Assembly: GCA_951406725.2 (NCBI GenBank)
Contig: OX597822.1
Span: 80,600,001 to 80,664,000 of the forward strand
Direction: 5' to 3'
DNA: 64,000 nucleotides
From: Octopus vulgaris
Lineage: Eukaryota
Shown here: positions 15,450 through 61,882 of the stretch, piece by piece
Layout: each line of letters opens with the position of its first letter
Numbering within the stretch: the first letter of the stretch is position 1
Translations under genes and position numbers: made by a program
The notes under the pieces: model-generated
Told to the model about the DNA's origin: nothing
Databases searched by the model: none
The model's input: the letters and a program-made list of their open reading frames with translations, nothing else

Positions 15450-15563
15450 ATGTTTACAGCACCTAAGTTTCCCAAGCAGTCACCCATCTAAGTATTAACT
15501 AGCCTTGACTCTGCTTAACTTGGGTGATCGGACGAGAACCGGTGTTTTCAAAGTTATATGGCC

Positions 15564-15568
<5 letters not shown>
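15450..15568 (-). pseudogene. 5S rRNA-derived sequence (pseudogene or SINE3 head)
   Basis: Minus strand tacggccatataactttgaaaacaccggttctcgtccgatcacccaagttaagc...tacttagatgggtgactgcttgggaaacttaggtgctgtaaac is colinear with metazoan 5S rRNA over ~119 nt, with many substitutions. Confidence 0.88.
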
Positions 15569-15623
<55 letters not shown>

Positions 15624-18146: not shown

Positions 18147-18210
18147 CTTTGTCTCTGATGACGGAATATCCCATACTCTGGGATATCATAGAAATACCTG
18201 TGAGACAAAG
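18147..18210 (+). ncRNA. Type I hammerhead ribozyme motif, cleavage triplet mutated
   Basis: ctttgtct CTGATGA cggaatatccca-tactc-tgggatatcata GAAA tacctg TG agacaaag. Helix I is 8 bp and helix II is paired, but the site is GUG rather than GUH. Confidence 0.7.
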
Positions 18211-18387
18211 AATTTCTTCCAATAATACTAAAGCATTATTATTGTATTGATTTTAGATAACGTTGTTTAATTCATTGTGTTATACTTTTATATTTTTATA
18301 CACTCTACGGATACTATATTTTTGCCTTGACGTATGTTGTCCTCTTTAACAATTATATGCCAACTATATATATATATATATATATGT

Positions 18388-18676: not shown

Positions 18677-18724
18677 GTCTCTGATGAAGGGATATATAAG
18701 ATATCCCGGAAGCATCTGTACGAC
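18677..18724 (+). ncRNA. Decayed type I hammerhead motif (same family as 61539)
   Basis: gtct CTGATGA agggatat-ataag-atatccc GGAAG catctg TA cgac; 3' flank resembles 61587-61654. Confidence 0.65.
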
Positions 18725-18787
18725 CTTCTCTTTATGAATGTTCTGAAAACTTTTCACACCCTTCGATTTTCTTATCTCATCTTGTTA

Positions 18788-24299: not shown

Positions 24300-24980
24300 T
24301 TGTGTGTGCGTGCGTGCGTGCGTGTGTGTGTATTTTTCCCTTGTTTTCAATTAACACGGAAAATATATATAAACAGTTACCAGGGCAGCATAAAATCACA
24401 CATGTAATAAAGACGTAACACTCTATTTGTAAAGGTAGACATTCTTGGTTGATGTGAAATATTTTGTATAATATATATAAATAAATGGAGTTAAATGCAG
24501 GTGTTATTCAAATTCTTTTATTTACAACATATGTTTCGAAGACAACATTGGTATTATGCATGTTGCTCTGTTTTTCTCCTGCAGCCTTTGACTTCCATAT
24601 TTTCAGCAGGAATGTAAACCGTATCTCTTGGAGGGTTTGTCAACATCCTGGACATAGTTCCTGCTCCATATTCTAGAAAACACACACACACAAACACATA
24701 TTACATATTACAACACATATTACAAATGCATATTACATGCATCTCCATACATACTTCGTTCAACCACCTCACCCCATTCTTTTATACGTTCTTTCATGAC
24801 TGTTCGCTGATAAAGAACTAGCGTGGAGAAGTTCAGTTCTATTTTCTTTCTTTCCAGCATAAAATATAGAGAGAATATGTATGTTAGTACGGACCGTGAA
24901 TATGAGTAAGCATATAGAACCCAGAGTGAAAGGAAAAGATGGAGATAGGTTGAAAGAGACAGACAGACAGACAGACAGAG

Positions 24981-47590: not shown

Positions 47591-47968
47591 TGAAATGGCA
47601 AAAATAAGTCACGATGTGTTACCGCTACTGTATATAACTCACTTTGATATTTATCATTGTTTGATTTCACTTTTTCAATATCAGCGACAGTGGGCGCTGG
47701 AAAAAGTATAAGTATTTGTGAAGGAAATCTAATTCTCGGCGACAACTATGATTGTCACACGCTGACGAGAGGTCAATACCTCGAAACTCGAGTCCGTGTG
47801 TATCATAAGTTGAAGACGGGAAGGATGACTTCCCTTTGCAAATACTGACAGGACACAGAAAGTGTGTCTATGGCCAGCTGGAGGAGTGTGTCCTCCTGGG
47901 GCTAAAAACTACAGTAGCATCCACCCTTATGGGTTAGCCATATTGAAATGGCAAAAATACGTCACGAT
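47591..47968 (+). mobile_element. Retrozyme-like monomer: 353-nt unit plus 25-nt terminal redundancy, one central hammerhead
   Basis: tgaaatggcaaaaata(a/c)gtcacgat at 47591 and 47944; flanked by (TA)n on both sides; no meaningful ORF. Confidence 0.8.
47756..47800 (+). ncRNA. Intact minimal type I hammerhead ribozyme
   Basis: cacacg CTGACGA gagg-tcaata-cctc GAAA ctcgag TC cgtgtg. Helix I is a perfect 6 bp, helix II is 4 bp, the core is complete and helix III is palindromic; predicted cleavage after GUC at 47794. Confidence 0.93.
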
Positions 47969-48821
47969 ATATATATATAGATATAGATATAGATATAGAT
48001 ATATATGTTTATAACCGAATATATAAGTATATATATTTAAAAATATATTTATATATTAAAATATATATTGGAACCTGCTTTCACATATATACATAGGTCT
48101 ATGTATCGCAGCTAGTACGCATGAATGTATGTATGTACATAAATGCATCTATGTGTAAGTTTTGCCTATAACAATCTTCTTGTTAAAATTGTATATAATA
48201 AAAAAACGTTCACTAATTACATAAAGGAAGAAATCATTATTAAAATAATTATTGCGAAATGTTTGATAATTTTTTGAAAAATTGAAATAAAATACACTAA
48301 AATAATTATTTAAGGAAATCATTCAAATGCGAAATTATTGGGATTTTTTTGAGTTTTTGACAGTAAATTTAATATAAAGAGAAATTTAAAACAAGAAAAA
48401 AATTGTAAAATCTAAAACGACTTTGCAGCTACATTTCGCTGTTCATTCCTATCTCACTTTTACTAATTAATCTGTGCTTTTCCGCACGTTTACATATTTT
48501 CATACATACATACATGCATGCATGCATACATATATACATACATACATACACACATACATACATACATACATACATAAATACATACATACATACATACATA
48601 CATACATACATACATACATACATACATACATACATACATACATACATACATACGTTTCTTTGAGGAGAGGAAGGACCTGATTTCTGACAAAAATAAAATG
48701 GTCCAATTTTTGATTGTAGTCAATAAAGACAATGTTAAGTTTTTGCTTCATATATCTATATATATCTATATATATATATATATATATATATACTAAGATT
48801 AATTATAGCTATTTGTATATA

Positions 48822-50114
48822 CGAGGGGCGTTCAATAAGTAATGCCTCTGACCCACTTGTAGCTGTTTGATCTAGCTGAAAATTTATATGTGCAATTATT
48901 TATTTCTCTATAGATTAGGTGGCAAATTACAGCTGTGAACCACTTGTGGTTTCTGATATACAGGTGTTTGAACTGAGTCAAGTGTGAAATGGAGCCTGTT
49001 GAGTGTCGAGCAGTGATCCGGTTTTCGTATTTGAAAGGGCGCACACCACGGGAGACTTTTGATGAAATGAAAGTAACTTATGGTGATGATGCCCCATCAT
49101 ATGACCTTGTAAAACGCTGGCATCGTGAATTCAAGCATGGTTGGAACTCTGTGGAAACAGCTCCCAGATCTGGTCGCCCCCCTTCTGCCATTGATGAGGC
49201 ATCTGTCCGTCAAGTTGAGGCTGCCATTTTGGAAGATCGACGCATAACTATTCGCCAAATAGCCCATTGGGTCAAGTTTAGTACCGGGTCTGTGGAAACT
49301 ATCATTCATGACCATTTGCATATGCAAAAGGTGTCCGCCAGATGGATTCCCAGGTTGCTCACACCTTTCTAGAAGCAAGAACGCGTCGAGTGCTCGAGGA
49401 TGAATTTGGAGACGTGCCAAGAAGATGAGTCAAAAATTTTCAAAATACTGATTACACAGGATGAAACCTGGATCCATCACTATGATCCAGAGACCAAAGC
49501 CCAGTCAATGCAGTGGAAGCACCGTGACTCACCTCCTCCAAAGAAGGCAAGGGTGCCAGCCCTCCGCTGGCAAGGTCATGCTCACAGTCTTCTGGGACCA
49601 GGACGGAGTAGTGATGACAGATTTCCTGGCAAAGGGTACCACAATTACAGGAGCCTATTATGCTTCACTTTTGAGGAAATTAAGAGAAGCTATCAAAACC
49701 AAGAGGCGGGGCAAGATCAGCAAAGGCATCCTCCTCCTGCAGGACAACGCACTGGTCTACAACTCGCGTGTCGCCAGATCAGAAGCACAGGCGTGCAGCT
49801 ATGAACTCCTCCCCCATCCCCTTACTCTCCTGACCTTGCACCCTCTGATTTTCCCCTCTTCCCAGCCATGAAGTTGTTTTTGAAAGGAAAGCGTTTCCCA
49901 GATGATGCAGCCTTGATTTCTGAAGTCACGTCGTGGTCGGAGGACCAAGCTGGGGTCTTCTACAAAAACGGTCTTCAGAGTTGCATCAAACGATGGGAGA
50001 AATGTGTAACTCTGAGTGGTTCCTATGTAGAAAAAGACTAATAACTGTGCCAAGTTTCGTTGCTCTACTGCTATGGGAATTGGGTCAGGGGCATTACTTA
50101 TTGGACGCCCCTCG
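48822..50114 (+). mobile_element. Full-length mariner (DD34D) transposon, copy 1
   Basis: TA|cgaggggcgttcaataagtaatgcc...ggcattacttattggacgcccctcg|TA; ~33-bp TIRs with TA duplication; 1293 bp. Confidence 0.97.
48989..50041 (+). pseudogene. Mariner transposase pseudogene
   Basis: HTH, WIPRLL, TQDETWIHHY, QDNA and YSPDLAPSDF motifs; stop at 49370-49372 and frameshifts near 49557 and 49820. Confidence 0.95.
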
Positions 50115-50763
50115 TACACACACACTCACACACACAAACACACAAACACATATATAGGAAAAACAATGGTTACATTACGAAATGCCTTATCTAACAGCTG
50201 TTTCTGCTATAAAATGCAAAATAGCTTTATCAGAGCCTCAAATATGAAGTGCCATGTAATTGGAAAAAACTATTACATTTCTGCAATATCCAGGAAAGCA
50301 TTAACAGTGAGGAAGTCATTAGTGAAGTAAATAAAAATGTCATTAGTGAAGTATATAGAACCAAAAAAGTATATACTTTACTACTGCCTTTTTTTTATTC
50401 TTCACAAATGACTTGCTCAATCCTATTGCTTTCCTGGATGTTCCACAAATGAAATCTTTTCTCCCAAATACATTGCGCTTCATTTCCCTATGCTCTACTG
50501 GATGCGTTGTGTTCGTTTGGTAAGTACAAATGTTTATATATCTAGTTCTTCCGATTATGTTCGTATCGATGTGTGGAGAACATGGTAACACATAGTGACC
50601 ACGATGCATTAATAGAATACAACTAAACAATTTTTTATTGAAGAAATCTCTCCTAGTTTTCATTCCCTCGATGTCGGCGCATGTTCATTGAAGGAGTTTG
50701 AGTTTAGAGTCCTATTAAAGCATGTGGCTTTTACGCACAGTAACAGCCCTTGATATTATAATG

Positions 50764-58868: not shown

Positions 58869-58887
58869 GTATATATAAATATATATA

Positions 58888-60177
58888 CGAGGGGCGTTCA
58901 ATAAGTAATACCCCTGACCTACTTCCCATAGCAGTAGAGCAACGAAACTTGGCACAGTTATTAGTCTTTTCCTACATAGGAAGCACCCAGAGTTACGCAT
59001 TTCTCCCATCGTTTGATGCAGCTCTGGAGACCGTTTTTGTAGAAGACCCTAGCTTGGTCCTCCAGCCACGACGTGACTTCAGAAATCAAGGCTGCATCAT
59101 CTGGGAAACGCTTTCCTTTCAAAAACAACTTCATGGCTGGGAAGAGGGGAAAATCAGAGGGTGCAAGGTCAAGAGAATAGGGGGGATGGGGGAGGAGTTC
59201 ATAGCCGCACGCCTGTGCTTCTGATCTGGCGACACGCGAGTTGTGGACCGGAGCGTTGTCCTGCAGGAGGAGGATGCCTTTGCTGATTTTGCCCCGCCTC
59301 TTGATTTTGATAGCTTCTCTTAATTTCCTCAAAGATGAAGCATAATAGGCTCCTGTAATTGTGGTACCCTTTGCCAGGAAATCTGTCACCACTACCCCGT
59401 CCTGGTCCCAGAAGACTGTGAGCATGACCTTGCCAGCAGAGGGCTGCACCCTTGCCTTCTTTGGAGGAGGTGAGTCACGGTGCCTCCACTGCATTGACTG
59501 TGCTTTGGTCTCTGGATCATAGTGATGGACCTAGGTTTCATCCTGTGTAATCAGTCTTCTGAAAAATTTTGACTCATCTTCTTGGCACATCTCCAAATTC
59601 ATCCTCTACCATTCGACGCGTTCTTGCTTCTGGAAAGGTGTGAGCAATCTGGGAATCCATCTGGCGGATACCTTTTGCATATGCAAATGGTCATGAATAA
59701 TAGTTTCCACAGACCCGGTACTAATCTTGACCTCATGGGCTATTTAGAAAATAGTTATGCGTCGATCTTCCAAAATGGCAGCCTCAACTTGACGGACAGA
59801 TGCCTCATCAATGGCAGAAGGGGGTCGACCAGATCTGGGAACTGCTTCCACAGAGTTCCGATCATGTTTGAATTCATGATGCCAGCGTTTTACAAGTTCA
59901 TATGATGGGGCATCATCACCATAAGTTACTTTCATTTCATCAAGTCTCCCGTAGTGTGCGTCCTTTCAAATACAAAAACCGGATCACTGCTCGACACTCA
60001 ACAGGCTCCATTTCACACTTGATTCAGTTCAAACACCTGTAAATCGGAAACCACAATTAGTTTAGAGGTGTAATTTACCACTTAATCTATAGAGATATAA
60101 ATAATTGTATATGCAAAATATCAGCTATATCAAACAACTGCAAGTGGGTTAGGGGCATTACTTATTGAACCTCCCTC

Positions 60178-60178
<1 letters not shown>
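58888..60178 (-). mobile_element. Full-length mariner (DD34D) transposon, copy 2
   Basis: TA|cgaggggcgttcaataagtaatacc...ggcattacttattgaacctccctcg|TA; 1291 bp; colinear with copy 1. Confidence 0.97.
58961..60011 (-). pseudogene. Mariner transposase pseudogene (C-terminal 177 aa open)
   Basis: QDNAPVH...YSLDLAPSD with 34 residues between the Ds; 2-bp deletion near 59943; stops at 59744 and 59531 (DET*). Confidence 0.95.
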
Positions 60179-60243
<65 letters not shown>

Positions 60244-60762: not shown

Positions 60763-60851
<89 letters not shown>

Positions 60852-60852
60852 G

Positions 60853-60921
60853 AGTGTATTTTTACCTTGTTAACAATTAACACGGAAAAATAATAAATAA
60901 ATAGTTACCAGGGCAGCAAAA
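60853..60921 (+). repeat. Dispersed repeat shared with 24328-24390
   Basis: gtgtattttt-ccttgtt--caattaacacggaaaa...agttaccagggcagca at both loci, each following a microsatellite. Confidence 0.8.
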
Positions 60922-61210
60922 CATGTGTCGAAAGTAAAAATACTTGTTTAAACCTGCGTTAACTCCATTTTTTATTCATATATATATATATATACATATA
61001 TATATGAGAGACATTGTTATCCAGCAGACCCAAGGTGGCAGGTAAGTCCAGGTAAGTGCTACAGGAGGACGGTAATAGGCTCTGGGTTCGGTAATGGTAA
61101 GAGGGAGGAGTCTAATACGGGTCTTGTGTGAGCATGTGTATATTAAATAAAATGAGACAACAAAGCCAAGGCTGTGTGGAATTTATAGAGCATTTATAAA
61201 GAGAAAGGTA

Positions 61211-61258
61211 GTCTTACAGCTGTTCCTGGGATATAAGGGATATCCTTTCATCAGTGGC
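61211..61258 (-). ncRNA. Type I hammerhead (GAAA mutated to GGAA)
   Basis: gcca CTGATGA aaggatat-cctt-atatccca GGAA cagctg TA agac. Confidence 0.75.
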
Positions 61259-61538
61259 CATATGAGACAGTTAACAAGAGTGAAATGGTTGAGTATAAGG
61301 CGTTATTTTCGGAAAGTATGGATATAGGAAGTATGAAAGTAAATAAGAAAATAAAAATAAAAATATATGTAGGACGTTACAGATGCAGGTCCATTATCCA
61401 AAGATAGTGCTGTGTAGAATGGGCAGACATGTCTCTTGTCTATGGTATGTAGATCGATAGGAGATCATATTTTTTTTTATTATAAATGGATAGTGTGGAG
61501 CCATATAACATAAAATCCCTTTGAATGAACAGTTCAAC

Positions 61539-61586
61539 GTCTCTGATGAAGGAATATTCCTACTATCCCAGAAACAGCTGTAAGAC
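61539..61586 (+). ncRNA. Type I hammerhead ribozyme, core intact
   Basis: gtct CTGATGA aggaatattcctactatccca GAAA cagctg TA agac; predicted cleavage after GUA at 61582. Confidence 0.85.
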
Positions 61587-61882
61587 TAACTGTGTCTTTA
61601 TAAATTTCCTATAAATTCCACACATCGTTGGCTTTGTTGTCCCATTTTATTTAACACACACACACACATATATATACATATATACATACATATCGACATA
61701 TATATTACTTATATACATCTGTGTGTGTGTGTGTGTAAGGAACATTGAGGGAGAAAAATCTAAAAGTGATATTCAACATAATAGCAAACCTTGCGGTGAG
61801 AGAAATTAGGGGATTCATATGATAATTATTATATACTAATAATTGCGAAGGTATCAATATTAATAAAAAGTTTCATTATAAT

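Follow-up and report, generated by a model that had tools for sequence, protein, structure and literature searches.

The 64,000-nt stretch of DNA analysed here (the window; OX597822.1, positions 80,600,001-80,664,000), AT-rich animal DNA crowded with microsatellites, carries at 61006-61654 what is very probably a decayed insertion of a high-copy Penelope-like retroelement (PLE), in which a 500-nt tailed 3' end on the minus strand was joined to a 115-nt tailless 3' end on the plus strand, likely in a single event and by the element's own enzyme. The original prediction had offered two readings of this locus, an inverted pseudo-LTR product of PLE type or a unit with ribozymes in both polarities. 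The first is supported by colinearity of the family with RT and GIY-YIG sequences, by head-to-head pairs with variable breakpoints and by a one-sided tail. The second found no support: the junction occurs once in the genome, the spacer is the body of one copy, no tandem of the unit is present, and the two motifs both show damage.

As had been proposed, the locus is framed by diverged inverted arms. Positions 61135-61254 are 85.8% identical over 120 nt to the reverse complement of 61543-61662 (E 2e-35), and each arm bears an outward-facing minimal type I hammerhead motif. Read from the sequence, these lie exactly where they had been placed, on the minus strand at 61258-61211 and on the plus strand at 61539-61586, with GUA triplets ending at 61215 (minus) and 61582 (plus). 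Two copies make up the insertion, one of 500 nt on the minus strand that ends in a tail and one of 115 nt on the plus strand that lacks it, and they meet head to head. The long arm runs from 61508 to 61006 through hammerhead and tail; the short arm runs from 61539 to 61654 and has a hammerhead. The left boundary, put at 61143, was wrong, as family sequence continues about 137 nt further left, to about 61006. The parts of the locus are as follows.

60977-61005, no strand: (AT)n microsatellite, left flank and likely target, from the sequence.
61006-61142, minus strand: one-sided 137-nt tail, the sequence that connects the pseudo-LTR with the following unit's ORF; common to many copies up to one sharp end.
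61143-61210, minus strand: the long arm 3' of the hammerhead, up to the short end of the family, from copy alignments.
61211-61258, minus strand: minimal type I hammerhead, damaged, by core and stem comparison and a shuffled-fold test.
61259-61508, minus strand: the "spacer", PLE 3' untranslated region, 5'-truncated at about 61508; 80-84% identical to dozens of copies.
61509-61538, plus strand: junction filler, including an exact 16-nt family piece at 61517-61532.
61539-61586, plus strand: minimal type I hammerhead with core and stem I intact, five of seven stem II pairs and a palindromic helix III.
61587-61654, plus strand: 3' part of the short arm, which stops at the family's short end without a tail.
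61655-61700, no strand: (CA)n(AT)n microsatellite, right flank.

No ORF survives at 61006-61654, no direct tandem of the two-arm unit was found there, and no target-site duplication is discernible in the microsatellite flanks. Another high-depth repeat lies just left of the insertion, at 60850-60950, and matches window positions 24332-24396.

The spacer had been described as unique. On sequence comparison it proves to be common family material, namely the 3' untranslated region of the PLE, with 61259-61508 corresponding to the family body on the minus strand. A genome search with 61143-61654 as query gave 2529 first-look candidates, 40 of which were scored. Among the 41 longest matches listed, 37 cover only query positions ~1-363, that is, spacer plus left arm, and four, the window locus included, cover all 512. 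Copies retaining both arms around the same spacer, for which such a search had been proposed, were found in one sense only: the whole query is matched at three other loci, where the right arms are 137, 162 and 150 nt long and the junctions are different, whereas the exact junction pattern has a single match in the 2.8-Gb assembly. Flank alignments show that the family extends in both directions, to the sharp end at about 61006 and, in longer copies, far upstream of 61508.

Going upstream in these longer copies, one meets a Cys-rich linker and the end of a GIY-YIG-type endonuclease, then RT thumb and RT core motifs. At L059, RT thumb, endonuclease, untranslated region, hammerhead and tail follow one another in order on one strand. 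At L075, hammerhead end, tail, ORF N-terminus and RT do likewise, forming a partial-tandem PLE junction, and at L107 the same continuation beyond the tail covers about 50 nt. The 3' end therefore reappears upstream of the ORF, as in a partial-tandem pseudo-LTR, at two loci only (L075 and, in part, L107). Within the junction of L075 (2742-2982), an (AT)n run separates the hammerhead end from the tail, precisely at the short end. An RT followed by a C-terminal GIY-YIG endonuclease in one ORF is present in longer family copies and not at the window locus; all copies seen are broken.

Pfam matches in longer copies (GIY-YIG, E 0.026; RVT_1, E 0.02) both fall under the curated cut-offs. A Pfam search of six C-terminal pieces had as its only results GIY-YIG (E 0.12) and a single weak match that is unrelated, and three of five further pieces gave neither an RT nor an endonuclease match. 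In the Atlas, the clusters nearest to the endonuclease piece score 0.95, one of them being named GIY-YIG, and the RT piece adjoins animal clusters, some with RVT_1 in 13-16% of their members. The N-terminal and RT motifs have what we take to be a Neptune-like look. Four cysteines (C-x-C-x5-C-x4-C) precede the YIG motif in longer copies, an arrangement that does not match letter for letter the Neptune linker given as CX2-5CxxC in PMC8557442. The sequences point to a PLE with Neptune-type features as set out in that source, namely a C-terminal endonuclease, a Cys linker and (TA)n targets (PMC8557442), an assignment that rests on motifs, with Pfam matches below threshold. In L049 and L051, the ORF linker that separates RT thumb from endonuclease includes an Asn/Thr-rich stretch, which recalls the N-rich inserts of rotifer Penelope elements mentioned in PMC3846280.

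The arrangement in the window recurs throughout the family. Head-to-head pairs, with at most 150 nt between the arms, are present at 42 of 114 distinct loci with a family match, these loci being the best-scoring matches and not a random sample; 25 of the 42 have a hammerhead on both arms. Eighteen loci were dropped as repeats of one insertion or of a duplicated segment, nine were dropped for want of a family match, and pairs with more than 150 nt between the arms (for example L028, L033, L054, L118 and L140) were left out of the pair count. Each of the 42 has its own combination of 5' breakpoints. The 3' ends form two fixed classes 137 nt apart (79 short and 70 long under the limits applied), and they combine as 37 long plus short, four long plus other, one short plus short and no long plus long, so that the tail is one-sided in 37 of the 38 pairs in which both ends could be classed. 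The sole short plus short pair is L133:1501-2250, where a tail may have been lost or interrupted. In two sets picked by body or untranslated-region sequence and not by end sequence, 14 of 14 pairs are long plus short, an outcome that random pairing would by simple arithmetic yield about once in 16,000. Of the 70 long ends, 55 have a microsatellite that begins within 6 nt past the end, as do 60 of the 79 short ends; among random positions the figure is 758 of 7050.

This pattern bears on whether two insertions of the same family could have landed independently, back to back. The family is abundant and favours microsatellites, and the two arms in the window are no more alike than random copies (85%, against a between-locus mean of 87%), with just one shared non-majority letter. 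However, the ends of independent insertions would pair randomly, yet 37 of the 38 classed pairs are long plus short, with no tail-to-tail preference needed, and the 31 nt between the arms hold family sequence and neither microsatellite nor host DNA. Across the family, arms of the same locus share 2.59 non-majority letters (n=27) as opposed to 0.89 for arms of different loci (n=7113), and none of 5000 re-pairings reached 2.59, although gene conversion could be an alternative source of such sharing. At L127 (C14) the arms are 99% identical and share ten non-majority letters, which may reflect a younger subfamily or gene conversion between the arms. Since the window's own arms share so little, a single-event origin rests here on the family-wide pattern and the flush junction. 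It had been argued beforehand that a two-arm arrangement unique to this locus would mean two independent insertions. The junction is indeed unique, but a junction found only at 61006-61654 is read here as a sign of one insertion event with breakpoints of its own. We regard two separate insertions as highly unlikely.

The junction itself suggests how the arms were joined. The piece at 61517-61532 is an exact 16-nt match, in right-arm orientation, to family sequence ~390 nt upstream of the short end, so that the right arm opens at about -390 of the family sequence and jumps from there to -114. One explanation is that both arms were long at first and that the right arm later lost ~250 nt by hairpin-driven deletion. 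The locus would still be a PLE insertion, its asymmetry being secondary, and this variant is counted within the preferred explanation, leaving the verdict unchanged. The jump in the right arm is what such a loss could leave behind. Near-perfect palindromes are prone to deletion, and the near-symmetric pairs at L029 and L015 have breakpoints in that same region. On the other hand, family-derived fillers of at least 16 nt occur at other junctions too (L003, L085 and L090), which fits template jumps, and we consider a later deletion unlikely, though a good deal less so than two separate insertions. At L029 (1218-1873), the junction falls in the same region as the window's filler, the long-tailed arm has an internal loss and a further direct copy lies downstream. 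Contigs from public runs of organisms A and B span the window junction at low depth (2 differences in 134 nt, 7 in 299 nt); on this contig evidence the site looks single-copy and older than the A/B split, and any deletion must be old.

The family's link to RT and GIY-YIG, its two fixed 3' ends 137 nt apart, its variable 5' breakpoints and its microsatellite flanks are observed; the enzymatic steps of what was likely a single PLE insertion are inferred as follows. By analogy with the anole element (PMC11167929), the endonuclease would cut both strands of an AT repeat. Each cut end would then prime reverse transcription at a fixed position on the element RNA, of which there are two, corresponding to the short and the long end; one cDNA would start at each, and the two would lie on opposite target strands. 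The two cDNAs would both stop early and be joined at their truncated ends, with one template jump at the junction leaving the 16-nt filler, unless that filler is the trace of the later deletion. Each arm would have a hammerhead only because both cDNAs ran further than about 115 nt. A proposal made for head-to-head junctions in PMC3846280 is self-priming on an antisense template. This is an alternative here, but by itself it gives no explanation of the long plus short rule. A DNA transposon with terminal inverted repeats was rejected because the ends are unequal, the inner breakpoints vary and the family carries RT.

It is possible, and we put it forward tentatively, that inverted PLE insertions are near-strictly long plus short, a dimeric enzyme priming one cDNA per cut strand at two fixed sites on a single RNA. 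This family, whose start sites lie 137 nt apart, would provide an easy natural read-out, and the extra A before G12 of its hammerhead may be an undescribed core variant.

In the hammerhead of the family majority both core boxes are present, helix I has 4 bp, helix II has 7 bp, A9 is followed by an unpaired A, and helix III is palindromic; this majority conforms to the minimal type I class, as does the right arm but not the left. An extra unpaired base between C11.1 and G12 is an A in 54 of 58 pattern matches, duplicates included, and none lacks an extra base. Over 120 copies, the core is kept in 78 and core plus both stems in 31 (by the script's count, which edge gaps lower), and core positions are conserved no better than downstream sequence (0.911 versus 0.902). 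In the left motif of the window, A13 is changed to G, stem I has lost two of its four pairs, and stem II has lost its first. The right motif keeps its core, an intact stem I and five of seven stem II pairs, an apparent stem I mismatch being an alignment edge gap. Neither 61211-61258 (z -0.60) nor 61539-61586 (z -0.27) folds better than its shuffles. The long stem foreseen in read-through RNA is indeed predicted, 99 of the first 115 bases pairing with the last 120 on either strand. In this model the arm duplex would bury both motifs and self-cutting at the window locus is predicted to be damaged; judged from their sequence, both motifs have decayed since insertion and likely do nothing here.

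These features make it scarcely credible that the locus is a mobile or replicating unit with a ribozyme per strand, whether a circle of viroid type or a miniature element with two arms that spreads intact. There is one hammerhead-shaped motif on each strand, and three other loci match the whole 512-nt query. Those loci, however, have other junctions, breakpoints change from locus to locus, the core of the left motif is disrupted, and both motifs are predicted to be buried. In genomic-depth contigs the junction reaches a depth of 6-29 against 10^4-10^5 for the family arms, depth not being the same as copy number. Moreover, cleavage could not release a monomer since the unit is not tandem. Two presumed RNA runs gave family-level cover only, with no contig across the window junction, which says nothing on expression. 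We rejected a viroid-like two-polarity replicon on the unique junction, the broken left core and the breakpoints that vary by locus, and a non-LTR retrozyme on the lack of tandem direct units at the window locus.

Minimal hammerhead motifs are not expected to reach the Rfam gathering threshold, and at that threshold Rfam found no hammerhead in the window. Its one match was a single 5S rRNA-like copy (15451-15569, minus strand; 80 bits) that adjoins an (AT)n run and is probably a pseudogene. Two single motifs elsewhere in the window had been assigned to the same family:

18147-18212, plus strand: distant relative, a single hammerhead-like motif with a different stem II; 73% over 59 nt, E 0.003; z -4.24.
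18677-18786, plus strand: distant relative, a single hammerhead plus 3' end with its G12-A13-A14 box changed; 69% identical to a family copy across 113 nt, with E 4e-4; z -1.98.

Their relatedness holds. Membership of the same subfamily does not, since identities of 69-73% (over 59-170 nt), compared with 80-93% within the family, indicate a sister family or much older copies. In a loose core scan, related hammerhead-like motifs of another family appeared at 47762 (plus) and 10862 (minus), 76% identical over 97 nt, and 39844 (minus), 14674 (minus) and 13181 (plus) are candidate core matches. Two 1.3-kb copies at 48804-50115 (plus) and 58887-60196 (minus), 93% identical, inverted and 8.8 kb apart, have broken frames that, by their motifs, we take to be mariner-type transposase.

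On its own the window locus matters little, being one old scar among thousands. It does advise caution, as hammerheads on both strands in animal genomes usually mean PLE insertion scars. The finding of 37 long plus short pairs among 38, together with a 137-nt tail that leads into an ORF, speaks for the model of two start sites that was demonstrated in vitro with one Poseidon element. The count extends that model to a Neptune-type family and aids assays of how inverted PLE insertions form.

Much of this architecture has precedents. Insertions of Penelope/Poseidon, Neptune and Nematis are described with an inverted 5'-truncated copy at the head of a 5'-truncated copy, a one-sided tail and microsatellite targets (PMC8557442, PMC3846280). 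The octopus family resembles such endonuclease-bearing PLEs in its head-to-head junction, its pseudo-LTR hammerhead and its lack of a clear target duplication, but its tail measures 137 nt as against the 30-40 bp given for PLEs and 31 bp for Pen2a_Av (PMC8557442, PMC3846280). In Schistosoma, dual hammerheads on opposite strands, 100-700 bp apart, were tied to truncated PLEs in 2014 (PMC4209133). Inverted truncated copies, one-sided tails and opposite-strand hammerhead pairs 100-700 bp apart are thus, on these sources, all already in print, and what still merits mention is a tail of 137 nt, the rule for the ends as counted here and an additional base in the core. Our literature search found no paper on octopus PLE hammerheads.

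The motif is like the minimal type I hammerheads of metazoan PLEs in its 7-bp helix II, 4-bp helix I, unpaired base after A9, G10.1-C11.1 pair and palindromic helix III (PMC4209133). The same source reports that minimal PLE hammerheads work, weakly, as dimers; the portion drawn on here makes no mention of an extra base between C11.1 and G12, which the octopus family has. Animal non-LTR retrozymes share the type I hammerhead and a PLE pseudo-LTR ancestry, but they are described as tandem direct repeats with a motif per unit, whereas the window locus is the inverted, 5'-truncated end of a coding element (bioRxiv 10.64898/2026.07.22.740005).

A further parallel is PAc, the Poseidon element of Anolis, whose enzyme cuts and extends both strands of AT-rich DNA in vitro (PMC11167929). 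Its reverse transcription has two start sites inside the RNA, with the tail as the stretch between them, and hammerhead cleavage is unneeded for insertion. The octopus family is like PAc in having two fixed ends with the tail between, at the pseudo-LTR/ORF junction downstream of the hammerhead, and in its AT-rich targets; it differs in clade, and its start sites are much further apart. The sections of PMC11167929 used for this comparison hold no count of how ends are paired in inverted insertions.
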